Translations under genes and position numbers: made by a program | The notes under the pieces: generated by a model | What the model was told of the DNA's origin: nothing | Databases searched by the model: none | Seen by the model: the letters and a program-made list of their open reading frames with translations, nothing else | Part shown: one piece after another, positions 4,768-21,295 of the stretch | Layout of the letters: every line of letters starts with the position of its first letter | How positions within the stretch are numbered: position 1 is the first letter of the stretch | NCBI GenBank assembly: GCA_018266085.1 | Contig: JAFEAZ010000008.1 | Coordinates: 3,278-67,277 of the forward strand | DNA length: 64,000 bases | Direction: 5' to 3' | Source of the DNA: Candidatus Babelota bacterium | GTDB lineage: Bacteria; Babelota; Babeliae; Babelales; Vermiphilaceae

Positions 4768-4893
4768 GCTGGTCCTTTGTGTTAGCGAGTTGGGAGATTT
4801 TTGTTTATTAGGGACACAGAATATAACATTGCTTGTGCGGGAGCAAGAAAGAAGAGCAGGCTACCACGATCGGCAGCCTGCGCATGAGTATGT

Positions 4894-5946
4894 CTATTGA
4901 ATGGATCTTGTAGAAGGATTTTGAAATGTCATTCTTTTGTTGCTTTGTAAAAGAAGCGCAGCAAATCCGTGAGCTCCGCTGACAAAGTTATTTAATTGTT
5001 GATTTGTTCTGGTAGAGACATCTAGAAGTCGATCAAGCTTGCCATTAACATCATCGATCTTTCTGGCTTGCTCTGTTGCTACTGATTCCAGTGCAGCGGT
5101 TCTCACAAGGATTTTTTCCAAGACAGATCGAGATTGCTCATTTCTTCCTGCAATATCACTGACCTGCTTTTCTATACTTTGATTCCAAGTGCTAGTTGCT
5201 TTGTCTCGCAGTAATTGCAGTCTTTCTTGCTCTTTTTGTTTTGCTACAATGGTTGCAAGTGATGAGTTAGCGGTAGCGACACCACCGGCCAAGCCATTAA
5301 CTTGAAGTGCAAGCTCATTTACTGAATTCTGGGTTGCTCTGGTAGCAACATCTGTACCTACTGCACTAACGCGTGAGTTTACATCGCTAAACCCTTGGTC
5401 GACTGATGCTTGAGTAGCTCTGGTAGCAACATTTGCTGCGACAGAATCAAGTCTGTTGTTAGCGGCACCGACTTCCTGGCTTAGTTCATCAACCGATGCT
5501 TGAGAAGCTCTGGTATTAACAGCTTCACGTAATTGATTGTCTCTCAGTATGCGTGAACGTTCTCTGAAATAATCAATTCTTTGTTTTCTTCTGTTGCTCA
5601 TTATAAGACGAGTAGCGCAGAACGCAGCAGTAACAGTTGTTCCTATGGCAGTTATGGTCAGTACTGGATGTTGCAGGAAGAATTCCGCAGCAAAACCTCT
5701 ACCAGATTGCACTGTTGGCTGAGCTGGTTGCGGTGCTGGTTGTGAAGGGACAAGATACACAAGTTGTGGTTGGGTGCTTGGTTGTTGCAGAGTGCAAGCA
5801 TTTCCGGGTGGCAGCAAGAGACTGTTTGCAACAGCAGCGCCACTTGTTGCCGCTGTATCGACCGCTTGCAGCATCGGTGCTACGCACAGACAGCATGATA
5901 ACAACACAGTAGTTACATCTATCATTTTGTTGCGTCTAATTTTCAT
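4894..5946 (-). CDS. hypothetical membrane-anchored coiled-coil protein with about 27-aa tandem repeats
   Basis: Start moved to MKIRRNKMIDV (ATG 5946). Signal/TM, Pro/Gln-rich linker, second TM, then repeats NTRASQASVDELSQEV / VATRATQASVDQGFSDV / VATRATQNSVNELALQV. Confidence 0.6.
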   Translation of the reverse strand: MKIRRNKMIDVTTVLLSCCLCVAPMLQAVDTAATSGAAVANSLLLPPGNACTLQQPSTQPQLVYLVPSQPAPQPAQPTVQSGRGFAAEFFLQHPVLTITAIGTTVTAAFCATRLIMSNRRKQRIDYFRERSRILRDNQLREAVNTRASQASVDELSQEVGAANNRLDSVAANVATRATQASVDQGFSDVNSRVSAVGTDVATRATQNSVNELALQVNGLAGGVATANSSLATIVAKQKEQERLQLLRDKATSTWNQSIEKQVSDIAGRNEQSRSVLEKILVRTAALESVATEQARKIDDVNGKLDRLLDVSTRTNQQLNNFVSGAHGFAALLLQSNKRMTFQNPSTRSIQ

Positions 5947-8660: not shown

Positions 8661-10048
8661 CCAATAGACCCTTCCATTTCATGGGCAATGAGCCGATTGA
8701 TTTCAACCGCATATTCCATGGGCAGCTCTTTGACAAAATCATTAATAAATCCATTAATAATGAGCGCGCGTGCAGCAGCTTGTGACAAACCACGACTGGC
8801 TAGATAGAGCATCTGTTCGTCACTGATTTTACTTAATGAGGCCTCATGTCCTACATCCACTGGGTGTTGTTCTATGGTTAGCGTAGGGTAGGTATCTGAA
8901 CGGGATGCTGCATCGAGCAGTAATGCATCACATTGAACACGAGCACGCACGTTACGCGCACCTTTGATAACTTTCAGCAGCCCGCGATAACTTGAGCGGC
9001 CACCATCTTTGCTGATCGATTTCGACAGGATGGTTGAGGTGGTGTTGGGAGCGCAATGAATCATTTTGCCGCCAGCATCTTGATGTTGCCCTTTGCCAGC
9101 AACGGCAATCGACAGAATATGGCCATGAGCACCAGGCTCTTTAAGAATAATGGCAGGGTATTTCATGGTGATTTTGCTGCCAAAATTGCCATCAATCCAT
9201 TCAACCGTTGCATTTTTGTAAGCAAGAGCCCGCTTGGTTACTAAGTTGTATACGTTGTTGGACCAGTTTTGAATGGTTGTGTAGCGCAGCCGCGACCCTG
9301 GGCGAGCGACCAACTCTACCACGGCGCTATGCAATGAATTTTTACGATACACAGGTGCGCTGCAGCCTTCGACATAATGCACGCTGCTGTTATCGTCGGC
9401 AATAATCAACGTGCGCTCAAACTGGCCCATCTGTGCAACGCTCATAGCAAAATATGCTTGTAGCGGCATCGTGACCTCGATTCCCTTGGGGATATAGATA
9501 AATGAGCCACCGCTCCATACTGCCGTATTGAGTGCTGCAAATTTATTGTCATGAGCGGGCACGATGGTGCCAAAATATTCTTTAAAAAGATCCGGATATT
9601 CAGATAACCCTTGCGTCATGTCACAGAAGATCACGCCAAGATCGGCCCATTTTTTACGCAGACTTTTGTAGATAACTTCCGACTCCATCTGTGCGCCAAC
9701 ACCGGCTAAAAACTGCCGTTCTGCTTGAGGTATGCCAAGCTTTTCGAAAGTAGTTTTAATGGTGGTAGGCACATCGTCCCATGAGGTCTGTTGTGCCGCG
9801 AGTGGTTTGACATAATAGAAAATGTCATAGGGGTCGAGCTGGCTCAGATCGGCACCCCAGGTAGGCATGGGCATCGCTTCAAAGCGGGCTAATGCTGCCA
9901 GGCGTATGTCGATCATCCAGTCCGGTTCATTTTTCTGCTCAGCAATCTGCAGTACAATTTTCCTGTTGAGCCCTTTTTGCGTGGCAAAATGGTAATCGCT
10001 TCGTTTCTGACGGGTATTCTTTTCAGCTGTTGTGGGTAAAGGCATCAT
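8657..10048 (-). CDS. sufB: Fe-S cluster assembly protein SufB
   Basis: Highly conserved SufB blocks (FIYIPKGIEVTMPLQAYF, HYVEGCSAP, GHEASLSKISDEQMLYLASRGL). Start is ambiguous (10048, 10045 or 10081). Confidence 0.9.
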   Translation of the reverse strand: MMPLPTTAEKNTRQKRSDYHFATQKGLNRKIVLQIAEQKNEPDWMIDIRLAALARFEAMPMPTWGADLSQLDPYDIFYYVKPLAAQQTSWDDVPTTIKTTFEKLGIPQAERQFLAGVGAQMESEVIYKSLRKKWADLGVIFCDMTQGLSEYPDLFKEYFGTIVPAHDNKFAALNTAVWSGGSFIYIPKGIEVTMPLQAYFAMSVAQMGQFERTLIIADDNSSVHYVEGCSAPVYRKNSLHSAVVELVARPGSRLRYTTIQNWSNNVYNLVTKRALAYKNATVEWIDGNFGSKITMKYPAIILKEPGAHGHILSIAVAGKGQHQDAGGKMIHCAPNTTSTILSKSISKDGGRSSYRGLLKVIKGARNVRARVQCDALLLDAASRSDTYPTLTIEQHPVDVGHEASLSKISDEQMLYLASRGLSQAAARALIINGFINDFVKELPMEYAVEINRLIAHEMEGSIG

Positions 10049-10808
10049 ACCCCTTATCTTTAAGAGTTGAGAGCAGGGCATAAGTGCCAGAATGGGTGAG
10101 TTTGCCGTCGGTCACTATATGTACCGCATCAGGGTTCAGTTGATCCAACAGTTGCGGGTTGTGAGTGATGACGACAATCGTTGTCGATGGGGCATCTGCT
10201 CTGAGTGCAGCGATACAGCGGGTAACCAGTTTTAAGGCATCAAGATCAAGACCTGAGTCGATCTCGTCAAGGATGATGCAGCGCGGTCGCAGTACGAGTA
10301 GCTGTAACAGTTCAAGCTTTTTCTTCTGCCCGCCCGAGAACCCTTCGTTGACGTTACGCTCACAAAAATTGGGGTCCATATCCAAAAAGAGCATCTGCGC
10401 TATGACATATTCTTTAAATGCCTGCACCGAACCTATCTGGTTGCCTTGTGCTTGGTAGGCTTCTTTGAGCAGCGTAAAGACGGGCACGCCGGGAAGTATA
10501 CAGGGGTTTTGAAAGGCGAGAAATATGCCTAACCGTGCGCGTTTGTCGGCAGAAAGCTCACGTAATGCTTGACCGTTGTAGGTTAATGATCCTGCCGTTA
10601 CGGTGCATGCAGGGTCACCCATGATGGTGCGGGCGAGGCTGCTTTTGCCTGAGCCATTTTTTCCCATCAGCAGATGTAAGGAGCCTGGTTGCAGGGTGAG
10701 CGAGAGATCGGTTACTACTGGCGCATCCTCAATGCTGACGCTGAGGTTGTCGATATGCAATATGTTGTCTCGAGTATTGTTGGGATATAACAAACCATTG
10801 TTAGCCAT
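10023..10808 (-). CDS. sufC: Fe-S cluster assembly ATPase SufC
   Basis: Walker A GKNGSGKS, signature FSGGQKKK, Walker B ILDEIDSGLD. ATG 10808 is preceded by GGAGAGGAGGAG. Confidence 0.9.
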   Translation of the reverse strand: MANNGLLYPNNTRDNILHIDNLSVSIEDAPVVTDLSLTLQPGSLHLLMGKNGSGKSSLARTIMGDPACTVTAGSLTYNGQALRELSADKRARLGIFLAFQNPCILPGVPVFTLLKEAYQAQGNQIGSVQAFKEYVIAQMLFLDMDPNFCERNVNEGFSGGQKKKLELLQLLVLRPRCIILDEIDSGLDLDALKLVTRCIAALRADAPSTTIVVITHNPQLLDQLNPDAVHIVTDGKLTHSGTYALLSTLKDKGYDAFTHNS

Positions 10809-10833
10809 ACAGAAGAATCTCCTCCTCTCCATC

Positions 10834-10862
10834 GTCATCCCTGCGTAGGCAGGGACCCATGG
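10834..10862. repeat. palindromic intergenic element, copy 3 (gtcatccctgcgtaggcagggacccatgg)
   Basis: Same architecture with a variant stem CCCTGC/GCAGGG. Lies upstream of sufC. Confidence 0.65.
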
Positions 10863-11100
10863 TTAATGTTTTTCAGAATTTTTGAGGATACGTCGGCCAT
10901 GTGCAAATCTTAATGAGCAATTAACTACAGAGCCTTTTTTAACGGTGTATCTTAGTAGATTTAGTATAAGCATTTTGGCAGTAAAAACCACTTTTTGCAC
11001 GCTTTATCTACAATTCTTGTTTTTCTTTTGATCATTCAGTTAGGATTATTGGCAGCAAGGTTTGGCTGAGCGTAAGCGCAAATAGACAAAGAGGGTGCAG

Positions 11101-11589
11101 ATGAAGCGTGCGATCTATTTTTTTGGCTCAGCACTATTCGTGAGTAGTCTGTCTGGGCGTTGTTCGCAACAGCAGGCTTATAAATCGGTCGCAGTGGTTG
11201 AAGAGAAGCTGGTCGTCTGCAAAACGGGCAGTAATACCGAACGTTGGTGTGTGGTGGCGGTCGAGTCACGCGATGGTCAGCCAACGTTGTATACGTATGG
11301 CAGCATAGTTGCGCGTTCTGGCAAAGCCTCTCGGCGTTTGCGCGTCCCGGTAGATGCAGAATTTTTTGTTTGCGTCGATGGCGGGTCCTATCAAAAGATC
11401 AACATTGCTACGTATTGCGCATCAAGAGGCTGTACTCGAGGTAAGAACCAATGCACTATACCTCATGGGCCTATAAAAATTTGGGATATTCAGCTGAACA
11501 TCGATGACGACAAACGCGTTACGATTGGGCCGAGAACTGATGGTTGTTTAGGATGTATACAACGTACAAGGAGTTGTTATGAAAATTAA
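11101..11589 (+). CDS. paralog-array protein 1 (secreted, Cys-rich, one module)
   Basis: Hydrophobic N-terminus MKRAIYFFGSALFVSSL. LVVCKTGSNTERWCVVAVESRDGQ...LRVPVDAEFFVCVDGG matches the module shared with array members 4-9. Confidence 0.7.
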   Translation: MKRAIYFFGSALFVSSLSGRCSQQQAYKSVAVVEEKLVVCKTGSNTERWCVVAVESRDGQPTLYTYGSIVARSGKASRRLRVPVDAEFFVCVDGGSYQKINIATYCASRGCTRGKNQCTIPHGPIKIWDIQLNIDDDKRVTIGPRTDGCLGCIQRTRSCYEN

Positions 11590-11977
11590 AGTATTGGCGG
11601 GAGTTATTCTGTTGTCGGCAGGCTTTGTGCCTGGGCTTCACTCAAAAAATATTAGGATAAAAGTTGTCAAAGAAGAACCTTCTGTAGCATTAGAATACGC
11701 CGTCGACACTGGTACGAATGATCCAAAGTGGCAATCACTCAAAAACAATGCGCAGATTAAGTACGACGACAATAAAACTATAAAAAAGCTCTATGTGAAG
11801 AGGCCTAGCGAGTCGGTTGGTTCGGCTAAGGTTTTGTTCTTGTTGGACGAGGCAGAACAAAAGAGACAGGGACACGATATTATTGTTGTTAACGAGATAG
11901 GGTTTCCCCGTTATTGGAAGCAAGAATACTTTAAAACCTCCCAAGAGAGCAAAGGTAAGAGCAGAAGTCGTCTGTAA
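11579..11977 (+). CDS. paralog-array protein 2 (small secreted)
   Basis: AAGGAG RBS. Signal peptide MKIKVLAGVILLSAGFVPGLHS. IRIKVVKEEP strand opening as in the other members. Overlaps protein 1 by 11 nt. Confidence 0.65.
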   Translation: MKIKVLAGVILLSAGFVPGLHSKNIRIKVVKEEPSVALEYAVDTGTNDPKWQSLKNNAQIKYDDNKTIKKLYVKRPSESVGSAKVLFLLDEAEQKRQGHDIIVVNEIGFPRYWKQEYFKTSQESKGKSRSRL

Positions 11978-12030
11978 AGTTCAATGATAGAGCAAATTGG
12001 TGCCTGCGTTAGCAATAAGGGGTACGTTGT

Positions 12031-12429
12031 ATGAAAATAATAACCGTTCGCTTACTCGCTATCGCCGCACTGTGCGTATGTGGTATACAGATCATCAGGC
12101 CGTATACAGTTGTTATCAAGCTGGTAGCAGAGGATGTGCGTGCGAATTTCTTGTATGCCATCGGCAGCATGGACGAAAACCTCTGCGATTTTCCTAATCC
12201 TATAGAGCTTACCTATAAAGTCATTAATGGTGGGGGTAAAGGTGTGCTCATAGCTTTTGACAATACCCTTATCAACTGGCTTTTTGTACGTGAATCGAAA
12301 GATGTCAAGCCATATCCGCGTTATGGCTTCAACTTAAAAAATACGCAAACACTTCAGATGGGTGGCTACAACTGTGTAGTGATTCGCCGTGATGGCACGA
12401 TTGGGTACGACATGGTTGAGAATTTGTAA
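12031..12429 (+). CDS. paralog-array protein 3 (small secreted)
   Basis: Signal peptide MKIITVRLLAIAALCVCGIQ is homologous to those of members 7 and 8. Beta-rich body. Confidence 0.65.
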   Translation: MKIITVRLLAIAALCVCGIQIIRPYTVVIKLVAEDVRANFLYAIGSMDENLCDFPNPIELTYKVINGGGKGVLIAFDNTLINWLFVRESKDVKPYPRYGFNLKNTQTLQMGGYNCVVIRRDGTIGYDMVENL

Positions 12430-12467
12430 AAGAGTTATGTATTTAAACAAGGTGAAGAAGATACCCT

Positions 12468-13286
12468 ATGAAACGTACCACTAGTTTTATAATCGTTGCT
12501 CTATTGAGTGTCAGTTGTGTGCAGGCTCTGTTGCCAGCCAAGCAGTCGGTTAAAGCATACAAAACCGGTCTTAAAAATGAGACATGGACTGTAGCCGTAT
12601 TTACTCAAGAGAATGATCCGACGCCCTTTTCGCAGACATCATTCAAAAGTACGAGCAGCATTTTGCCAGGCAGAGGGCTCTACTTTAATTTCGATGGCAA
12701 CAGTACCAACTATATCAAGGTGTACCCAGTCGATGCTACGAAGGCAAAAAGATGTCAAGGGCAAAACATGCACTACAGCTGCGGTCAGATTGAGACCTTG
12801 AAAATTACTGAAGAGCAAGCGCTGCCGGGTTCAGTTATTCGCATAGAGGTGACCAGTGCTGATGTGTACAGCATTAAAATCGATCCACCGAAGAAAGATA
12901 GCGTAGAGATTGCGGTAAAAAGAGACTGTGATATTGGTGAAGCATGTGAAGCTTCTTGGACCGTAACAATACATGACGAACAAGACAACCCTACCGGGTA
13001 TACTGCGCAGGTTGGAGATGATAAACCTGCAAAAATACGAGTGCCTGCGAATAAACTATTCTGGGTGCATGTAAAGGCCGGTTCTTCTGAGATAGGAAAC
13101 AAAAAGATTGAACCTACAAAAAAATTAACGAACAAAAATGTGCTGCTTGTTAGTAGTGGCATGGTAGCAGTAGCGACTCAAGGTGACAAGATTGATACAT
13201 TGTTTGATACGGTGAAGGCTGCTGCACCGAAAAAAAGAAAAAAACCTGTACAAGATAGAGAGTTTGAGCAGTTTGGCAGTCTTTAA
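12468..13286 (+). CDS. paralog-array protein 4 (secreted, two modules)
   Basis: Signal peptide ...VALLSVSCVQA. Module A: VKAYKTGLKNETWTVAVFTQENDP. Module B: ASWTVTIHDEQDNP...IRVPANKLFWVHVKAGS. Confidence 0.75.
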   Translation: MKRTTSFIIVALLSVSCVQALLPAKQSVKAYKTGLKNETWTVAVFTQENDPTPFSQTSFKSTSSILPGRGLYFNFDGNSTNYIKVYPVDATKAKRCQGQNMHYSCGQIETLKITEEQALPGSVIRIEVTSADVYSIKIDPPKKDSVEIAVKRDCDIGEACEASWTVTIHDEQDNPTGYTAQVGDDKPAKIRVPANKLFWVHVKAGSSEIGNKKIEPTKKLTNKNVLLVSSGMVAVATQGDKIDTLFDTVKAAAPKKRKKPVQDREFEQFGSL

Positions 13287-13309
13287 GCTATACATAAAAA
13301 GGAGATGGC

Positions 13310-14071
13310 ATGAAGAAGATGAAGAGAGTAGTTGCAGTGGGTGTGATGAGCATGGGCTTGGTGAATGCTGTGTATTGCGAGATACGCAAGCTGGTAGCAA
13401 CGAAAAACAGCGATACGTTTGGTTGGTCGGCGATACAGATCTGGCAAAACGGCAGCCAGGTATCGGCGGCAAAGTTTAAGAAAAGCACTGCATCTGATGC
13501 ACAATATCCACAGGGTCAGAGTAATAAATATCTCTTTTTTGATACAGACAAAGGTGGTGTTGAAGTTCGTTTCTATTGGACTGCTGATGCCTATGCATCT
13601 CCTGGTACAGGAGCCGCTGACGTACCTCTTTTTAAAAATACAACACTATACACTCAAAATGATTTGCCTTTTGGAACTACGATAAAGATTAACTGTCCTT
13701 CTGGTTATAATGGCACAGGAAGCTGCAAGATGGAGGCCGCTAAACCTACGATTAAGTATACGAAAGTAAAGGTCGTCAAGGCTGATAACCAGAATGTATT
13801 GTGGACGGTCAAAGCAGCATCGGGAAAATTGGCTAATCCCAACAAAAGTCAGACCTATGGAACGGTAAACATATTGAAAGAAACTGGGCTTACGAGCAGA
13901 TTGAAGGTTCCCAACAATAAAGATTTTTGGATAGTTGTGAGTTCTAATGATAAAAACGACAAGGTCTTTGTTGGTAACAAAACGGCCGAGATTACTGAAA
14001 TCAAGGCTGGCGCGATAAAGAGCGGTTCTGTGATCAATATTGATGGACAAGGCAAAGCGACTATAAAGTGA
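13310..14071 (+). CDS. paralog-array protein 5 (secreted, two modules)
   Basis: AAGGAG RBS and a signal peptide. Module B: VKVVKADNQNVLWTVKAASG...LKVPNNKDFWIVVSSND...VINIDGQGKATIK. Confidence 0.75.
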   Translation: MKKMKRVVAVGVMSMGLVNAVYCEIRKLVATKNSDTFGWSAIQIWQNGSQVSAAKFKKSTASDAQYPQGQSNKYLFFDTDKGGVEVRFYWTADAYASPGTGAADVPLFKNTTLYTQNDLPFGTTIKINCPSGYNGTGSCKMEAAKPTIKYTKVKVVKADNQNVLWTVKAASGKLANPNKSQTYGTVNILKETGLTSRLKVPNNKDFWIVVSSNDKNDKVFVGNKTAEITEIKAGAIKSGSVINIDGQGKATIK

Positions 14072-14115
14072 ATTTAGAATGTCAGAATAAACGTTTATAA
14101 AAAAAGGAGAATGGT

Positions 14116-14496
14116 ATGAAATTTCTCAATAAAATAATGCTGCTGAGTGCGGGGTTTGTCTGTGCAGCGCAAGCAAATGAAATCAGCATAACAAATACCT
14201 TGTCACAAGAAATGCCGGTTACTGTTACCTTCGCGGTGAGCAAAACTGCAAAAGCAACAAGACCAGCTAAAAAGAGAATACTGTATAACCAAACAGCTTC
14301 TTTCGACCAGCCCATTGACAAAGATTGGGTAACGATTACGGTGTATCACGCTGGTGGGTATAAAACCGTTAAGATCCAGCGGTCATTTAGTCTCAAAAAC
14401 CCTCTTTTTGACAATAGCAGAGCAATTACCATTGAAGGTGTAAGTAGCACACCTACCTTGTGGCTTAATGGCAAAGAGCTTGAGGCAGTACGCTAA
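14116..14496 (+). CDS. paralog-array protein 6 (small secreted)
   Basis: AAGGAG RBS. Signal peptide MKFLNKIMLLSAGFVCAAQA. Beta-rich, 126 aa. Confidence 0.65.
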   Translation: MKFLNKIMLLSAGFVCAAQANEISITNTLSQEMPVTVTFAVSKTAKATRPAKKRILYNQTASFDQPIDKDWVTITVYHAGGYKTVKIQRSFSLKNPLFDNSRAITIEGVSSTPTLWLNGKELEAVR

Positions 14497-14526
14497 AGAG
14501 GCTGAGTAAATAGAAAAGGTAACAGT

Positions 14527-15276
14527 ATGAAGATAATGACACGAATAGTGACCATTGCTGCGTTGTGCGTCGGGGTTGCGCCGATGGTAACGGCGGTCAC
14601 GGTTAAAGTTTTCAAAAATGACCCAGCTACCTGGAGCAAGCCTTGGACTTACCAATTGAGAACACAAAAAGATGCAGGACAAGAGAGCACTATGCAGGGT
14701 CCGTTGACCTCCGCAGGCGTTGCTTCTGAAGTGGCCGTTACCAGAGGAGCATCGACTGTTATGACAGCACAACCAAAAAGGTTTACAAAGACTGTCAACC
14801 TATCAGTTGATCCAGGCAAGCATAAGACTATTTTACGTGTGTATCCTAACACTACTCAAATAGAAAATACTGGTTCAGACTTGCTGTTAAAAGAAGGGAA
14901 TGATGAGCCATTTAAAGGTAAGGCGGTTCTAGCCGACACGAATGGCAAGCTCTCATTCGTAGATCTAGATATTGCTCTTGCCCCAACGCACAAAGTGCCG
15001 GTTGAAAAAGAAGTAAAAGGTCCCTTGTGGACAATAACTGCAAAAGAAGTTGCGAGTGGTCCTAATAATGGTTTTGTCTATGGCGAAGTAAAAATAAAGA
15101 AAGATACCAGCTTTGGCAAAGATCTTGTGGTTCCTACGAATAAAGACTTTATTTTGTATGTAAAAGGACCCGGTTTGTCGGCAGCTAGTCAGTTCTTATT
15201 CAGCGGTGACAACGTAAATAGGCTTCAAAAAATCACAATCGACAAAGGCGGAAAGATCGTGCCGGTACTAAAATAG
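14527..15276 (+). CDS. paralog-array protein 7 (secreted, two modules)
   Basis: VTVKVFKNDPATWSKPWTYQLRTQ (module A). PLWTITAKEVASG...LVVPTNKDFILYVKGPG...ITIDKGGKIVPV (module B). Confidence 0.75.
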   Translation: MKIMTRIVTIAALCVGVAPMVTAVTVKVFKNDPATWSKPWTYQLRTQKDAGQESTMQGPLTSAGVASEVAVTRGASTVMTAQPKRFTKTVNLSVDPGKHKTILRVYPNTTQIENTGSDLLLKEGNDEPFKGKAVLADTNGKLSFVDLDIALAPTHKVPVEKEVKGPLWTITAKEVASGPNNGFVYGEVKIKKDTSFGKDLVVPTNKDFILYVKGPGLSAASQFLFSGDNVNRLQKITIDKGGKIVPVLK

Positions 15277-15296
15277 TGAAGAACTCGTAAAAACAT

Positions 15297-15364
15297 GCCC
15301 TACCACTGTATGCATAAACCCCATACATCCGGTAGGGCTCTTTCATGCCATGCCGCAGGCATGG
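15297..15364 (+). terminator. two stem-loops in the only long spacer of the array (possible terminator or transcript boundary)
   Basis: gccctacc(15297-15304)/ggtagggc(15331-15338), with inner tgtatg/cataca, followed by TCTTTC. Then ccatgcc-gca-ggcatgg (15348-15364). Confidence 0.4.
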
Positions 15365-15471
15365 AACATCGTATGTCATGCTACAGACACAACTCTTGTT
15401 TTGTCGCAACCCAACCGGCTAGAGTTGGTTGCGGCGATACTGTATGACGCTATAAAAAAGAGGTAGAGAGT

Positions 15472-16392
15472 ATGAAGGTAAGATCGAGAATGGTAGTGGT
15501 TGCTGCGTTGTGCATAAGCTGTGTGCAGGTGACGCAGCCAAAAAAGGTGAGCTTAAAGCTCTATAAAACTGATCCGACAACCTGGAACAAGCCTTTTTAT
15601 TATGTGATACAAACTGCAGCAACTGACGTTAGCCAAAGCGTAGGGCTGCCTCCTAGAAAAGATGGCAAGCCGCGCATGTTACAGACGCGGTTAGAAAGGA
15701 CACCGGCAAGAACGGTGACGACTAGCCATTCACTGGCAGCTTATAAACCGATAAAAAAAGATGTGACGATATCCTTTGATGATGAAGATGAAAACATCCT
15801 ATTTATCAACGAAAAACAGGATGGCAAGGGCAAAGGTGGCTCTTTGGTGCTGTCTGACCCTGATGGTAAACATGCAGGCAAACCTGCTTACACGACAGGG
15901 CATGTTATTGCAATAGGAGCCGGAGAAGGTGCCGAAGATATCTACAAACCAACAAGCATGTTGAAGGTAGGCGTAAGCGAGATCATAAAAGAGCGACAAG
16001 GTAAATTTTTTAAGATCCCGGTATATAAAGAAGATCCGGATACATGGGGGCAGAAGTGGACCATCACCTTGGTTGATGGGCAAGGGAGAGAATACCCTGA
16101 TGCTAAAGTAGATATTTACAAAGATTCTACTTTCAAAAAACTGTGGATTGCAAAAGATATAGAGCCAGGCAGTACGTATGTTGAGGTACGTAAGCCTAAG
16201 GCCCCTACCTTGGTAGATACGCCGTTGCAAAATAACCCTGGTGTTTCTTGGGAGCAGGGATTGTTGGTTATTGATGAAGATGGGCATGGGCGCATCGAGA
16301 ATAAGTCATTTATGCAGAGTGCGCCCAAGAAAAAAGCAAACAAAACAGTTCGAGCTGCTGAGAATCAGAAGTCAGAAGCAGAGCTCTTTTGA
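15472..16392 (+). CDS. paralog-array protein 8 (secreted, two modules)
   Basis: VSLKLYKTDPTTWNKPFYYVIQT (module A). IPVYKEDPDTWGQKWTITLVDGQG...LLVIDEDGHGRIEN (module B). Confidence 0.75.
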   Translation: MKVRSRMVVVAALCISCVQVTQPKKVSLKLYKTDPTTWNKPFYYVIQTAATDVSQSVGLPPRKDGKPRMLQTRLERTPARTVTTSHSLAAYKPIKKDVTISFDDEDENILFINEKQDGKGKGGSLVLSDPDGKHAGKPAYTTGHVIAIGAGEGAEDIYKPTSMLKVGVSEIIKERQGKFFKIPVYKEDPDTWGQKWTITLVDGQGREYPDAKVDIYKDSTFKKLWIAKDIEPGSTYVEVRKPKAPTLVDTPLQNNPGVSWEQGLLVIDEDGHGRIENKSFMQSAPKKKANKTVRAAENQKSEAELF

Positions 16393-16438
16393 CTCTATGT
16401 CCAATGAGCGTTGGTTTACAGAAAAAAGGACATAAAAT

Positions 16439-17695
16439 ATGAAAAAGATGTTGTGTTTAGTGAGACTGTCGGTTATCAGTTGCAGCATTGTATGCAGCGT
16501 GCGCGCAGCAACCGTTACGGTAAAGCTTTTAAAAACTGACCAAGGCACGTGGGACAGGCAGTTCGCCTATTTCATTTCGACGCGAACCAGTGAAAAAAAG
16601 AGCAAGATTGGAGTGGGGCCACTTGTTATCAGAGAGGCAACGTTAGAGATGCCGACAAAATATTCGGCCGAAAAATTTATAAGAAAAGATGGCAAAGTAA
16701 CTTTTGAAAGAGAAAGTGAAGACACCGTACTTTATGTCTGTACAAAGCTTAATGTGAGAGAACCTGAAAAAGCGCTAGATGTTTGTAAATCGCTTAGTTT
16801 AAATGATTTTGCGACTCGTGGCACTAGCTCTAATTTGGTCGTTGGCATCGACAAAAATGGTGTTCCATCGGTAATGACGCAGGCTGAAGCGAATAAAAAA
16901 ATTGCCGATAGTGGAAAACCACCAATGCATGCTGTAAAGGTGAGAAAAGTCGGTAATAATACTGCTGCATGGACCGTTAAGGTGATACGCTCTGACGATG
17001 GCGTACCAGCACCGGATGTTATTTTAAGTCGAATTACCATAAAAAGAAATTCTTCATTCAAGTTAGACTCGTTAAAAGTTCCAAGGAACAGAGAATTTTT
17101 TATTACGGTCAATGACGAAGCGCCACAAAAATTTAAGAACATTGCTGTCGATGCAGTGTTGAACATTAATGATGATCGCATTGTGGAAATCGGTGGCATG
17201 ACGGCAGCAGTGCTTGCGGCGCAAGAAGAAGAGCGTAAAAAGAAAAAGGCAGAGCATGATGCACAAGTTGCTCAAGCAAAAGAGAAACAAGATAAAGCAA
17301 AAGAAGAAAAACGGGCGAAAGAAGAAGCGCTTTTAGAAAAAAAAGTCCGTTTTGCTCAAGCAAATCTCATAAGAGCTCAATCAAAAAAACTCTCTGATCA
17401 TGACCAAGCCGATGCCTTGGAACTATTGGCAAATCATAAACGCGACAGCGGAGATACAGAGGGTGAAAGTCGTGTTCGCCCCGCAATAGATACTATAGAA
17501 GCGCGCAAAAAGCTTACCAAAGAAGACAAAGAAGTTGCACTTAATTTACTGCTCGAGCAGAGAGAAATACAACTCGAAACGGCTCAGTTGAATTTGCAGC
17601 GGGCACAAGTCTCTGCTCGTATACACTTACCAGGTGAATCAGGAGCAGCTTTGACACCACCGACGGGTGCAAAAGAAGTACATGTTAAGCGATAA
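16439..17695 (+). CDS. paralog-array protein 9 (secreted, two modules plus a Lys/Glu-rich coiled-coil tail)
   Basis: VTVKLLKTDQGTWDRQFAYFIST (module A). VKVRKVGNNTAAWTVKVIRSDDG...LKVPRNREFFITVNDE...LNINDDRIVEIGG (module B). The C-terminal ~170 aa read AAQEEERKKKKAEHDAQVAQAKEKQDKAKEEKRAKEE... Confidence 0.75.
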   Translation: MKKMLCLVRLSVISCSIVCSVRAATVTVKLLKTDQGTWDRQFAYFISTRTSEKKSKIGVGPLVIREATLEMPTKYSAEKFIRKDGKVTFERESEDTVLYVCTKLNVREPEKALDVCKSLSLNDFATRGTSSNLVVGIDKNGVPSVMTQAEANKKIADSGKPPMHAVKVRKVGNNTAAWTVKVIRSDDGVPAPDVILSRITIKRNSSFKLDSLKVPRNREFFITVNDEAPQKFKNIAVDAVLNINDDRIVEIGGMTAAVLAAQEEERKKKKAEHDAQVAQAKEKQDKAKEEKRAKEEALLEKKVRFAQANLIRAQSKKLSDHDQADALELLANHKRDSGDTEGESRVRPAIDTIEARKKLTKEDKEVALNLLLEQREIQLETAQLNLQRAQVSARIHLPGESGAALTPPTGAKEVHVKR

Positions 17696-17709
17696 TAATG
17701 ATTTTCTGA

Positions 17710-17737
17710 GTCATCCCCGCTTTATGCGGGGATAACC
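17710..17737. repeat. palindromic intergenic element, copy 4 (gtcatccccgctttatgcggggataacc)
   Basis: Stem TCCCCGC/GCGGGGA. Lies between the convergent array gene 9 and the ligase gene. Confidence 0.8.
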
Positions 17738-17803
17738 TGCGATAGAGAGTCTGTGTAGGAACGAGAGCATGGCGTGCAAGAGCATACGCTTGCCAAAAGA
17801 GCT

Positions 17804-19540
17804 CTATTTCACAAACTGATCTTCATACAGTCGCACAATCTCATCACTGGTGGTCGCCTCGCCAGGCCCTTTGTCAGGCCTGTAATCAACAAAGCGAGGA
17901 AAGCGCAATGCATAGCCAAGTGTCGTGTCGGTACTGCCCGCCTTATGCGTTGGCGATTGCGTAATCTCTTCGGCAAGAATGCTCACCACCAGCTCAGGAG
18001 CTACCCACACATCGGGGTAGAGTTGTGGTGCACACGCAACATTCTTTGGTTGTTGCTGCACAGCAAGGCTATCACAGCGCCTGCGCAGTTCTATCCAATC
18101 AGCATCCTTAAGTCCAGTCCCAACCTTTGCTAGTGTCTGAAACGAGTCATCATGCTTGTTGTAAACGCCAACCAGAAAGGCGCCAATGCCAAAGGCAGCA
18201 CGTTTGCCAGAACCGGCATAGTAGCCAAGCACGACAGCATCGATGGAATCTTCCAGTTGCCCCATTTCATGCCGCTTGAGCTTGATCCAATTAAAATTAC
18301 GCTTACCCGCTTGGTAAGGAGCATGCGGGCGCTTGACCACAAGCCCTTCAAGACCTGCTGCAATGCAACTCAAAAAATAGCTTTCTAAAGCCTGTACATT
18401 CTCTATAGGCTTTTCTTCAATGACACGCATCGCTGAGGATCGATCACCGACCAGATCCAACAATAATGCGCGACGTTGCTCATGACCGGTTGACAACAGA
18501 TCTTGGCCGTTTAAGTACAGAAGATCGAAAAAGATTATTTGGAGTGGAAATTCTGCTGCTTTGGCTTCAATATCATGCTTGCGTCGACGTTTCATAGTTT
18601 CTTGAAACGGCAAAAATGATTGGGTGTTTGGGTCATAGGCTATTGTTTCACCCTCTGCAATAAAGCTCTGTTTGCCCAGCTTCACAATCTCCTGCACGAG
18701 GTCAGGAAACATTGCCGACATATCGGTCAAATGGCGAGAGAAGAAATGAATTTTCGGTGTGGGGCCGGTTGCATCATAATGAATCTGCAAGCGAAAACCA
18801 TCAATTTTTGGTTGCGCAACACACCTGCCCATCTTGTCGATAATTGCCTGTGCGCTTGGCAACCGCTCTGCGCCAGCAGGTCTGATGGGTGATCCGATTC
18901 GTATCGCCACATGCTGTATAGCATCAATACCAGATTCTTTCAGCAAGCGCGCGGTATAACCAATATCAGCGCAGAGATTGTAAGCCGATTCGATGGTCTC
19001 GTGTAATGATTTGTTGCCACAGATCATCCATGACAATGCATCGATAATGGTCATATCAGAAAAGCCGAGTCGCAGCTTGCCGATAATGATACGTACAATG
19101 AATTTTGCCGATACTGGATCTACTTGACGCAGTAACGCGACTGTCTTATTCCGTTTCTCTTCATGGGAGCCACTGCCGGAAATCTCTTCAAGCGCGCATA
19201 GGTTACCATACACCTGCGCAACGGTCAGCTCTTGCGTTGTCCGATCGGCATACTGCTCAATCACAAGCCCCAGATCTCCCAATTTTTTTGCTTGCTGCGT
19301 AACAGTGTCGACATTTTGTTGCGCAATATCGGCAACAATATGGGTCATCAACGTTTCTGCCAGCGTAAATTGGGTACCAATAAAGGGTGGGTGCAGTTGC
19401 CCTAACGCAAGATTGCATATGATGTCGGCTTCGTTGGCAGATGCTTGGCTCAAGAGTTGCGCAAGCAAACGCGTCATATCAAGGCGGCCCGGTGTAGATT
19501 CTATCTGTTGAAAATAGTCGCTTACTACTGAAAAATTCAC
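17804..19540 (-). CDS. lig: ATP-dependent DNA ligase, Lig1/archaeal-type three-domain architecture
   Basis: Motif I KIDGFRLQIH, motif III FIAEGETIAYD, motif IV EGLVVKRP, motif V NWIKLK. An N-terminal DNA-binding domain of about 230 aa. GTG start with an AAGGAT RBS. Confidence 0.85.
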   Translation of the reverse strand: MNFSVVSDYFQQIESTPGRLDMTRLLAQLLSQASANEADIICNLALGQLHPPFIGTQFTLAETLMTHIVADIAQQNVDTVTQQAKKLGDLGLVIEQYADRTTQELTVAQVYGNLCALEEISGSGSHEEKRNKTVALLRQVDPVSAKFIVRIIIGKLRLGFSDMTIIDALSWMICGNKSLHETIESAYNLCADIGYTARLLKESGIDAIQHVAIRIGSPIRPAGAERLPSAQAIIDKMGRCVAQPKIDGFRLQIHYDATGPTPKIHFFSRHLTDMSAMFPDLVQEIVKLGKQSFIAEGETIAYDPNTQSFLPFQETMKRRRKHDIEAKAAEFPLQIIFFDLLYLNGQDLLSTGHEQRRALLLDLVGDRSSAMRVIEEKPIENVQALESYFLSCIAAGLEGLVVKRPHAPYQAGKRNFNWIKLKRHEMGQLEDSIDAVVLGYYAGSGKRAAFGIGAFLVGVYNKHDDSFQTLAKVGTGLKDADWIELRRRCDSLAVQQQPKNVACAPQLYPDVWVAPELVVSILAEEITQSPTHKAGSTDTTLGYALRFPRFVDYRPDKGPGEATTSDEIVRLYEDQFVK

Positions 19541-19553
19541 GGGTAGATCCTTT

Positions 19554-20336
19554 TTATTCGGTTAATCGCTCAAGCCCTTTGTTTCTATTCGCTTCAAAGG
19601 CTGTCTTAAAGATACATAACGAAAGAACGAGGTAGATGCAGTTTAATATAAGACCAATAATGAGGTTCGAGAGAGGCAACTGCTTCAGGATGACGAGAGA
19701 TCTCATCGCCTCAAAGGTGTAACTCATGGGCAGCAGGCGTGCAATGGCCTGCGCAAAGGGCGGTAACACCTCGATGGCATAATAGACGCAACTAAATGGG
19801 TCGAAAAGCCAACCGACAATATAGATCAACGCACCTGCTCGCTTACCGCGATAGGAAACGAGCGAAGCACATAAAAAACCTACCCATAACCCGGAGAGAA
19901 TAAGTTGTGCAATGATAGGAGCTAGCCGCCAGCCAAGGGTCGTGATCACAAAACCATATAAAAAGTAGATGATGATCGACAGGAAAAGACAGACGACACA
20001 GGCAACAGCAATTGCCAGGAGCAGTGTTGCCAACATCCATTCAGAGAGTCGTAAGGGTGATGCGAAAAGATTGACCAGATTTTGAGACCAGACCTCTTCC
20101 AAAAAGCTGAATGAGATTTCATAATTAATACGTGTCACTAAATGCCACAATAATGCACCAATTAAAATAGAGGATGCTGAGCTCTGTTGCGTCTCGGTCC
20201 AGACGCTGGCATAACCCCATGAGATAAGATCCATTAAGGGCCAGTAAAAGACCTCTATAAAACGGAGTGCATCTTGTGTCATATGACTTATGTGCCCCAA
20301 AATGACCGCTCTTACACGATAGAACGATATGTTCAT
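19554..20336 (-). CDS. ABC-2 type transporter permease
   Basis: Six predicted TM helices. 4-nt overlap with the upstream ATPase gene. Confidence 0.7.
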   Translation of the reverse strand: MNISFYRVRAVILGHISHMTQDALRFIEVFYWPLMDLISWGYASVWTETQQSSASSILIGALLWHLVTRINYEISFSFLEEVWSQNLVNLFASPLRLSEWMLATLLLAIAVACVVCLFLSIIIYFLYGFVITTLGWRLAPIIAQLILSGLWVGFLCASLVSYRGKRAGALIYIVGWLFDPFSCVYYAIEVLPPFAQAIARLLPMSYTFEAMRSLVILKQLPLSNLIIGLILNCIYLVLSLCIFKTAFEANRNKGLERLTE

Positions 20337-21295
20337 AGAACTCCAGACGAAGTACGCAAAAGGTGTAAGAAATAATCTTCTAACGTAGGTTTCTCAATCG
20401 AAATTTGACAGTATTCAACATTGCTACGAGACAGACTTGTCAACAACTGTGCAATTGCTTGTTCATTGACCGTAATTTCAAGGGTATTACTCGTGACGCT
20501 ATAGGGCAGCTCTTGTTGTTGCGTGTAGGTGATAGCAGCATCTAAACCATGCTCAATCTCTAAGACAACGCGTGTATTGCCTATGCGGTGCGCAAGCTGT
20601 GCCGGTGTGCTGTCATCGATAATGCGTCCGTTTTTCAGAATAAGTACGCGATCACACAGCTGGCTTACCTCAGTCATATTGTGTGACGTGATTAAAAATG
20701 AGGTGCCGAACTCCTGGCGCTGACGTAAAACAAAATGGCGTACATCCTGTGCTACCTCAGGATCAAGAGAGGCGGTAGGTTCGTCGAGAATAACGATTTT
20801 TGGGTTAGCTAGAAATGCTTTTGCGAGCACAACGCGTGTGGTCTCACCAGCAGAGAGTACGCCAACTTCGGTATCGGCCCGTTGTTGCATACCAAAAAAG
20901 GTTAAACAGTGATCGATACGCTGTTCGATGTGGCGCGATGATAAGCCGTACAGACGTCCATACATGCGTAAATTGGAGCGTACGGTAAGCCGCTCAGGGA
21001 GCTTTGCGTAGGTACTTGCAAAACCGACAGAACCTAAAATTTCGGAGCGATGAGTGGTAAAATCTTGATCAAAATAGAAAATATTTCCTGAGGTAGGTTG
21101 CATAGTACTCAAGAGCATCTGCACCGTCGTCGTTTTTCCAGCACCATTAGGACCCAGGAGGCCGAGAATTTCAGCTTCCGCTACGGTGAATGATATGTCA
21201 TCGACAGCAGTATGAGCAGCTCTATTGGGTCCAAAAAAACGTCTAACACTAGGAAATGTTTTTTTGAGATTTTCAACACGTAAAACGGCCACCAT
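20333..21295 (-). CDS. ABC transporter ATP-binding protein
   Basis: Walker A GPNGAGKTT, signature LSAGETTR, Walker B ILDEPTASLD. Confidence 0.85.
   Translation of the reverse strand: MVAVLRVENLKKTFPSVRRFFGPNRAAHTAVDDISFTVAEAEILGLLGPNGAGKTTTVQMLLSTMQPTSGNIFYFDQDFTTHRSEILGSVGFASTYAKLPERLTVRSNLRMYGRLYGLSSRHIEQRIDHCLTFFGMQQRADTEVGVLSAGETTRVVLAKAFLANPKIVILDEPTASLDPEVAQDVRHFVLRQRQEFGTSFLITSHNMTEVSQLCDRVLILKNGRIIDDSTPAQLAHRIGNTRVVLEIEHGLDAAITYTQQQELPYSVTSNTLEITVNEQAIAQLLTSLSRSNVEYCQISIEKPTLEDYFLHLLRTSSGVL

Follow-up and report, generated by a model that had tools for sequence, protein, structure and literature searches.

A tandem gene array encoding a family of putatively exported beta-sandwich modules in a presumed Dependentiae contig

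What are the nine consecutive genes p1 to p9, which lie on the same (+) strand at 11.1-17.7 kb of a 64-kb stretch of contig JAFEAZ010000008.1 (hereafter the window), and how did those among them that encode two-module proteins come about? The latter are p4, p5, p7, p8 and p9, the five two-module genes taken in by the span 12468-17200. An earlier reading, made from the letters alone (the sequence-only reading), had described them as internal duplications with a common N-terminal module A and a C-terminal module B of recurring signature, and had proposed that a duplication of the module was followed by duplications of the gene.

Module layout and signature of the array proteins

The two-module layout was found in all five proteins, and the peptides that had been quoted for it were all recovered from the translated open reading frames (ORFs). 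Overall, the C-terminal module followed the signature hKVxK...W[TC][VI]x[VA]...YGxVxIKKDT...LxVPxNKDFxIxV...IxIDxxG (h, hydrophobic), with 27-34 amino acids (aa) between the tryptophan and the VP motif, in agreement with the spacing of about 25-35 aa claimed beforehand. The strict pattern first proposed for module B held for p5 and p9, but p4 and p7 departed from it at one to three positions, and p8 did not possess the VP motif, reading LWIAKDIEPGSTYVEV at this place. In its relaxed form ([LIV]xVPx[ND][KRA][DEL]F), searched for across the 477 ORFs of 50 aa or more that the six frames of the window contain, the motif had five matches (p1, p4, p5, p7 and p9) and none elsewhere. The single-module protein p1 thus bears the B signature, as had been stated (Table 1), and a hidden Markov model (HMM) of module B built without p8 matched the second module of p8 among the window ORFs (HMM positions 5-100, E = 6.6e-5).

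The N-terminal halves did not turn out to be one shared module A. Instead, two kinds were distinguished by profile comparison with hhalign, to which the percentages below refer: A1 in p7, p8 and p9 (94-98% pairwise) and A2/A3 in p4 and p5 (95%), with no direct similarity between A1 and A2 (3%). Based on these comparisons, the array appears to contain three sequence classes of one module. The S/A1 class would include the free-standing p2, p3 and, weakly, p6, as well as the N-terminal modules of p7, p8 and p9. The B class would be free-standing in p1 and C-terminal in p4, p5, p7, p8 and p9, while the A2/A3 class, N-terminal in p4 and p5, is probably a diverged B.

Homology of the N- and C-terminal modules

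The kinship of the two halves was assessed with module profiles enriched with approximately 30 metagenomic relatives. Profiles built from orthologs only related class A to class B at 0.5%, and A to B of the same protein at 0-16%; they were too shallow, and homology would have been wrongly rejected on their account, whereas enrichment changed the result. With the enriched profiles, all modules joined in one connected graph. Class B was linked to the second module of p8 (p8B; 97.1%, E = 7e-11, 92 columns), to M, a middle B-like module found in some relatives (97%, E = 1.3e-10, 85 columns), to A2 over 88 collinear columns, that is nearly the full length (90-92%, E = 7.7e-7 to 1.9e-6), and to the C-terminal module of pX, an extra gene of related arrays described below (60%, E = 8.9e-5, 42 columns). 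p8B was also linked to A1 over the full length (78.2%, E = 1.8e-5, 98 columns), and merged profiles of A1 and S2, with or without S3, aligned with merged profiles of B and p8B, with or without M, over 95-98 collinear columns (72-80%, E = 1.4-3.4e-5).

Real scores ranged from 31 to 57, compared to 8-12 ± 1-3, and never more than 21, for control profiles that were column-shuffled or reversed with their composition kept. For single links, the real score was 37-39 for A2-B (shuffles 10-11 ± 2-3), 51.5 for A2-A3 (10.5 ± 1.2) and 33.3 for p8B-A1 (11.9 ± 2.1), and the shuffles of the merged profiles scored 8.2 ± 1.4.

The structure of mature p7 (window 14596-15273) was predicted with AlphaFold2, the second run being based on a 16-sequence alignment of A1-B relatives (model mdc448ae634de; predicted local distance difference test, pLDDT, 80.5; predicted template modelling score, pTM, 0.73). 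In this model, p7 comprised two all-beta modules with eight core strands each, and module A possessed an extra hairpin (residues 30-49) located at the variable insert of the family alignment. Residues of A were mapped to B by chaining the profile alignments p7A to p8B and p8B to p7B (88 pairs). The DSSP state was equal at 71 of these 88 pairs, including 42 strand-strand pairs, compared to 16-61 when the registers were shifted by 2-8 residues, and the eight strands of A paired one-to-one with the eight strands of B. By strand order, then, the predicted model bears out the expectation that A and B share a fold. Because the enriched-profile links lie far above the shuffles and the strands map one-to-one, the membership of N- and C-modules in one superfamily is supported, at the level of profiles and of a predicted structure.

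Origin of the two-module architectures

Across p7, p8 and p9, A modules clustered with A and B modules with B, and the same was observed across p4 and p5. Each two-module architecture therefore seems to predate the gene duplications, which supports the duplication of genes that already had two modules. Two architectures can be recognized among the five proteins, A1-B (p7, p8 and p9) and A2/A3-B (p4 and p5). The proposed succession of module duplication and gene duplication stands in so far as the halves are homologous and the two-module genes were duplicated, but the internal duplication itself could be made out for the p4/p5 type only. The N-terminal module of that type would be a diverged B, which is the expected outcome of an internal B-B duplication. 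Clear internal duplication was otherwise apparent in relatives: P0010 is a B-B tandem whose halves reached a Smith-Waterman score of 160, compared to 30 ± 5 for shuffles, and P0022, P0032 and P0038 have three modules (A2, M and B).

The A1-B proteins are explained by fusion as well as by internal duplication, since A1 is nearest to the free-standing p2 and p3 and B is free-standing in p1. According to this alternative, p7, p8, p9 and pX are fusions of diverged neighbouring S-type and B-type genes, brought about by the loss of an intervening stop codon and of a second signal peptide, and only the p4/p5 type arose by internal duplication; we regard it as a serious contender, albeit the less probable account. 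In its favour, A1 is far nearer S2 (97.3%, E = 1.7e-11, 100 columns) than any B module (7% directly), B also stands alone in the 136-aa protein P0025, and single-module S and B genes adjoin in the array, where p1 and p2 overlap by 11 nucleotides (nt), as well as in the related array L009, where eight single-module genes follow one another. However, none of the relatives provided an S+B pair that is orthologous to p7, p8 or p9 and still unfused, and the A-B linkers contain no visible remnant of a second signal peptide. Moreover, in p8B the first hairpin is of the A1 type (YKEDPDTW) and the rest of the module of the B type. This hairpin could reflect ancestral retention or conversion, and an internal duplication of old date, or gene conversion, accounts for it no less well than a fusion.

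The history favoured here would start from an ancestral, lineage-specific module of approximately 100 residues and eight strands, diversified into the S/A1, B and A2/A3 classes. Two-module genes would have arisen at least twice: the A2/A3-B type would stem from an internal duplication of B, and the A1-B type from a duplication of greater age or from an S-type gene that fused with a B-type neighbour. Tandem duplication of these genes would then have produced the p4/p5 pair and the p7/p8/p9 trio. The process may continue in relatives, as illustrated by a fresh B-B tandem, by three-module proteins and by an array that has grown to at least 17 genes in the same place.

Strain variation of the array

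Compared to the syntenic array L001, synonymous divergence (dS) was 0.3-0.55 in the flanking genes but 0.84 in p5, 1.4 in p8 and 3.7 in p9, and the identity of these three proteins to their L001 orthologs was 54%, 51% and 33%, respectively. The best-conserved array member was p3, with 92% identity to its L001 ortholog. The ratio of nonsynonymous to synonymous divergence (dN/dS) was 0.15-0.45 in the array and 0.01-0.23 in the flanks. In the ortholog alignment of the window, L001, L003 and L005/L006, mosaic junctions were located inside p7 and p9. The last 40 residues or so of p7 occurred as two unrelated alleles among strains, and the p9 of L005 possessed an L001-like N-terminus and a window-like tail. 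The uneven dS, together with the mosaic junctions, points to recombination between deeply diverged alleles, and indicates that p5, p8 and p9 were replaced by such alleles rather than having diverged in a clock-like manner.

Gene content also differed among arrays. The extra two-module gene pX (198-265 aa), located between p5 and p6, encodes an A1-like N-module and a weakly B-like C-module. It was present in L001 (8698-9294), L006 (3411-4208) and L009 (17164-17877) and absent from L003 and from the window (gap 14071-14116), and is a whole-gene presence/absence polymorphism.

Distribution and relatives of the family

None of p1-p9 matched a Pfam-A or NCBIfam family above the curated cut-off. When 31 family members were searched against Pfam (E up to 1), no family was matched by more than two members and none above the cut-off, DUF11 giving no match, and searches of PDB sequences with the module family were also without match. 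Judging from these searches, the module family appears to be previously undescribed and unannotated, with no Pfam, NCBIfam or PDB relative. When 1.84 billion representative proteins were searched exhaustively with an HMM of the B module, 37 of them matched at E ≤ 1e-3. Approximately 28 of these were genuine small proteins (136-462 aa), all metagenomic, and most of the small relatives were two-module proteins with B at the C-terminus.

Seven B-profile matches to giant repeat proteins were considered as a lead to a known immunoglobulin-like (Ig-like) family and discarded as summed-repeat artefacts, with less than 9 bits per domain; the four of the seven that were run against Pfam fell into unrelated families (DUF7507/DUF11, LapA, CshA/Big_9 and Tudor). 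Membership in DUF11/DUF7507 was rejected as well: the DUF7507 protein P0013 had reached 69 bits, summed over 8 stretches, with the first B profile, but dropped to 1.6 bits with the enriched one, in which none of its domains scored above 0 bits.

A homology search via one family alignment returned orthologs of p4 and p7 only, and a related-locus search with p3 alone returned one GTDB species representative. Syntenic arrays were found in four other assemblies (L001, L002, L003 and L005/L006). In addition, a 79.5-kb Logan contig from a more distant relative (SRR21358936; L009) contained a suf-adjacent array (8906-20438) directly after sufSDBC, with at least 17 genes, among them the run of eight single-module genes and three p4-like A2+M genes. 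In L010, the array begins directly after sufC. As far as these loci go, the family seems to be confined to a narrow lineage and always to adjoin the suf operon.

Foldseek matches of the p7 model were all beta-sandwiches, none of them significant enough for a superfamily assignment. The best full-length matches in the PDB were tandem same-fold beta-sandwiches (two CBM41, 2j43; two C2, BON1; two CBM26; pilins; Fab chains), and the best single-module matches were CBM41, the HGSNAT luminal domain, TssJ/Lip and a transthyretin-related protein (template modelling score normalised to the target, TMt, ≤0.48). The fold of the module is accordingly modelled as a generic beta-sandwich.

With E between 8e-4 and 5e-3, the tandem CBM41 of Streptococcus pyogenes PulA (2j43), a single CBM41 (2j72) and a tandem CBM26 (6b15) were the best of these matches. 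Like the CBM41 and CBM26 tandems, p7 would consist of two consecutive all-beta modules of the same fold, of approximately 100 residues each, in an exported bacterial protein. Unlike them, it showed no sequence kinship (Pfam and PDB searches being empty), the template modelling score (TM) was ≤0.47 on a single-domain target, and no aromatic sugar-binding platform was identified, although binding residues were not assessed, the likeness being that of generic beta-sandwiches. Membership in CBM41 or CBM26 was rejected, as the match was weak and at the fold level only. Transthyretin/Ig-like sandwiches with seven to eight strands (Escherichia coli transthyretin-related protein, 2g2n; TssJ/Lip, 4a1r; HGSNAT, 8vkj) matched single modules over approximately 105-140 residues, with Foldseek probabilities of 0.97-1.0, root mean square deviations of 3.6-5.7 Å and TMt of 0.42-0.48, but E-values were 7e-3 or weaker, identities were 7-13%, and these proteins belong to other biological contexts and share no motifs with the family.

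Among viral structures (BFVD), the best matches to p7 were proteins of giant viruses of protists, namely Pithovirus LCPAC202 (A0A481Z5Q7) and LCPAC201 (A0A481Z471), Tupanvirus (A0A6N1NQ68), a chlorovirus (M686L) and Edafosvirus. The alignments covered the whole of both modules (E = 9e-5 to 8e-4, probability 0.9-1.0), and the hosts of these viruses are protists too. However, TM was only 0.24-0.31 and identity 10-15%, and the viral proteins are themselves uncharacterised; the likeness could be a shared-host connection or merely that of generic double beta-sandwiches.

Export and possible role of the proteins

All nine proteins start with the basic-hydrophobic layout of a Sec-type signal peptide (e.g. 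MKIMTRIVTIAALCVGVAPMVTA/V), which is kept in relatives, and all nine would be exported via Sec. This agrees with reports on Dependentiae: in the cultured Chromulinavorax destructans, 44% of coding sequences have signal peptides and ORFans are overrepresented among the secreted proteins (PMC6561590), and components of Sec, of type II secretion and of the type IV pilus are encoded in TM6 genomes (PMC4776705). The array proteins resemble the secreted ORFans of C. destructans by their Sec signal peptides, their lack of recognisable domains, their restricted range and their host-dependent lineage, but, compared by description, no family with this module is reported for that organism (PMC6561590).

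Once exported to the periplasm, the cell surface or a host compartment, the proteins may serve in binding or adhesion where bacterium and host meet, as modules without enzymatic activity, and in p9 the two modules would sit on a long, charged stalk of helical structure. The deep mosaic allelic divergence at p5, p7, p8 and p9 would fit selection for variability at such an exposed interface. A role as exported host-interface binding proteins is the most likely one because of the signal peptides, the Cys-rich p1, the generic binding-type beta-sandwich and the charged p9 tail, and also because there is no enzymatic motif and no neighbouring assembly gene, the range is narrow and the evolutionary dynamics are unusual.

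Taken as a whole, the module history set out above combined with this binding role is the explanation that we hold, with moderate confidence, to be the best. Several observations weigh against it. In direct comparison, A1 and B aligned at 7-16% over approximately 20 C-terminal columns only, so that their link hangs on the intermediate p8B or on merged profiles, which at 72-80% is not decisive, and A3 (the p5 N-module) showed no direct link to B (1%). Internal similarity was found at the level of family profiles, but within single proteins Smith-Waterman scores of A against B did not differ significantly from shuffles in p5 (p = 0.8), p7 (p = 0.5) and p9 (p = 0.07), and were marginal in p4 (p = 0.004) and p8 (p approximately 0.011, 1000 shuffles); the resemblance of the two p8 modules pointed out by the sequence-only reading is thus present, but weak when that sequence is taken singly. 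The structural likeness of A and B was compared by strand order alone, on a predicted model, and the first p7 model, based on 14 sequences, had a pLDDT of 64.8 (50-60 in module A) and no Foldseek match at E ≤ 1e-3. Foldseek with the p7 model gave no significant specific match in the PDB (best E 8e-4, single-domain TM ≤0.48). Furthermore, dN/dS was below 1 throughout, the signal peptides were assigned by eye from a basic n-region, a hydrophobic h-region and a small-residue cleavage site, the flanks contained no secretion, assembly or regulatory genes, and the family showed no ligand-binding signature. Finally, the labels of the metagenome-assembled genomes with the locus conflict, namely Candidatus Dependentiae (JST99), Epsilonproteobacteria (GCA_020850675.1) and uncultured Pseudomonadota (GCA_964533545.1), and the Dependentiae assignment used here is that of one source label, the record of a protein identical to p4.

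A different role, as surface-fibre subunits (pilin-like, with strand exchange) or as lipoprotein/pilotin-type envelope-assembly factors, is improbable. Pilus operons typically contain genes for small exported Ig-like proteins in tandem, weak Foldseek matches were obtained to Gram-positive pilins (3gld, 6n0a and 7vcr), to TssJ/Lip (4a1r, TMt 0.42-0.45) and to a type II secretion system pilotin (5wec), and several signal peptides end in Cys, the VISC of p9 fitting a lipobox. However, neither role finds support, since the flanks of the window, L001 and L009 contained no gene for an usher, chaperone, sortase or type VI secretion system and no prepilin-type signal, and no Pfam pilin or PapD domain was matched in the 31 family members; in addition, all Foldseek E-values were 8e-4 or weaker and most members have no canonical lipobox. 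For want of such flank genes and Pfam domains, membership among chaperone-usher, type V pilin or PapD-like proteins was rejected, FimA/Mfa not being among the top 50 Foldseek matches, and readings as TssJ or as OspE-like proteins found no support either.

That the N- and C-modules are unrelated all-beta domains, alike through generic amphipathic beta-strand periodicity and shared composition, is highly improbable, for although the direct A1-B and A3-B comparisons and the within-protein alignments of p5, p7 and p9 were insignificant and an early B profile also gathered the spurious summed matches to giant repeat proteins, shuffled and reversed profiles of the same composition never reached the real scores, the module alignments are collinear over the full length, the eight predicted strands of either module coincide under the A-B alignment, and the giant-protein matches vanish with a better profile while the links within the family strengthen with more sequences.

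Organization of the locus and its features

The array is flanked by sufS/D/B/C (iron-sulfur operon, minus strand) on one side and by an ATP-dependent DNA ligase gene on the other, and the wider flanks in the window, L001 and L009 encode sufSDBC, the DNA ligase, an ABC transporter, plsY, pgsA and secDF. The overlap of p1 and p2 (11579-11589) and the short intergenic gaps, most of which are 23-60 nt long, suggest that the array genes are co-transcribed; a scan of the array for promoter and terminator consensus sequences revealed no excess over chance. Between sufC and p1, L001 possesses a gene for a 97-aa GIY-YIG nuclease (4823-5116), whereas this interval of the window (10838-11095) comprises approximately 250 nt of non-coding DNA only. 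RNA genes of the window include four tRNAs and no rRNA. The p4 protein was 100% identical to P0005, named 'hypothetical protein JST99_01270 [Candidatus Dependentiae bacterium]' at NCBI. Coordinates of the genes and their modules are given in Table 1.

Table 1. Genes of the array and the modules assigned to them, with window positions and the main evidence for each module.
Feature	Position	Strand	Description
p1	11095/11101-11589	+	single module, class B
p1 module, class B	~11182-11532	+	motif LRVPVDAEF; hhalign p1B-p9B 96%; B HMM 83.6 bits
p2	11579-11977	+	single module, class S2
p2 module, class S2	11579..11977	+	nearest kin of A1 N-modules (S2-A1 values in the text)
p3	12031-12429	+	single module, class S3
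p3 module, class S3	12031..12429	+	kin of S2; S2-S3 hhalign 94.8%, E 5e-8, 98 columns
p4	12468-13286	+	two modules, A2-B
p4 N-module, class A2 (diverged B-like)	12540..12890	+	A2-B hhalign 90-92%; Smith-Waterman p4A vs p4B p=0.004
p4 C-module, class B	12897..13184	+	motif IRVPANKLF; B HMM 62 bits
p4 K-rich tail	after 13184, to 13283	+	ends REFEQFGSL
p5	13310-14071	+	two modules, A3-B
p5 N-module, class A3, homologous to A2	13376..13738	+	A2-A3 hhalign 95.4%, E 1.9e-8, 111 columns
p5 C-module, class B	13751..14068	+	motif LKVPNNKDF; hhalign p5B-p7B and p5B-p9B 96%; B HMM 94.8 bits
p6	14116-14496	+	single module, class S6
p6 module, class S6, weakly tied to family	14116..14496	+	S6-A1 hhalign 36%, E 3.7e-4, 55 columns; A1 HMM E 0.04
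p7	14527-15276	+	two modules, A1-B
p7 N-module, class A1	14593..14970	+	A1 HMM 119 bits; eight predicted core strands plus inserted hairpin (AlphaFold model)
p7 C-module, class B	14986..15273	+	motif LVVPTNKDF; pLDDT 80-92 in model
p8	15472-16392	+	two modules, A1-B
p8 N-module, class A1	15541..15924	+	hhalign p8A-p9A 98%, p7A-p8A 94%; A1 HMM 102 bits
p8 C-module, class B without VP motif	16003..16305	+	bridge, resembling B (97.1%) and A1 (78.2%)
p9	16439-17695	+	two modules, A1-B, plus tail
p9 N-module, class A1	16508..16873	+	A1 HMM 112 bits; hhalign 94-98% to p7A and p8A
p9 C-module, class B	16922..17197	+	motif LKVPRNREF; hhalign p1B-p9B 96%, p5B-p9B 96%
p9 K/E/A/Q-rich tail, ~155 aa	17225..17692	+	composition; ends in conserved HLPxxSGAA motif

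Orthologs of p1 begin at MKR. The protein is cysteine-rich (approximately 10 Cys), with a p1-specific insert, YCASRGCTRGKNQC, between strands of the B module, which is shorter in the distant ortholog P0012, and a C-terminal CLGCIQRTRSCYEN; its Cys content is consistent with a disulfide-bonded extracytoplasmic protein. The tail of p9, for which NCBIfam returned weak matches of the helical-linker type only (E 0.03-0.9), is probably helical or a coiled coil. At its C-terminus (17600-17692), the motif [HV]LPxxSGAAxxP is conserved, as HLPGESGAALTPP in the window, HLPEPSGAALLP in P0019 and HLPDASGAAVLPP in P0024. The C-terminus of p4 (13257-13283) is also kept in distant orthologs, as REF[EQ]Q[FS]G[SG]L, and L009_14593 and P0032 end in EQHGGL. 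These short conserved C-terminal motifs of p9 and p4 could be sorting or interaction signals.

Implications for the family and its hosts

Dependentiae (TM6) are widespread, almost wholly uncultured parasites of protists, and ORFans make up much of what they export. The bacterium with the present array is itself uncultured and probably depends on protists. The family presented here is defined at the module level, by its boundaries, three classes, a signature motif and a predicted fold, and would evolve by gene duplication, by duplication or fusion of modules, by gene gain and loss and by allele replacement. Tandem secreted beta-sandwich families with internal repeats are already familiar, and nothing is overturned by this one, whose function we infer. 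Its members can reasonably be put forward as candidate host-interface proteins, and the family offers a neat example for teaching how domain architectures evolve.

A bolder reading, doubtful at present, is that the array is a polymorphic host-recognition cassette locus of a Dependentiae clade, composed of a new extracellular beta-sandwich superfamily and diversified via tandem gene duplication, module duplication or fusion, gain and loss of pX and recombination of diverged alleles. If true, the locus would adjust how the bacterium attaches to, or manipulates, different protist hosts and would be a functional analogue of variable adhesin/antigen loci, with possible structural relatives in the giant viruses sharing these hosts.

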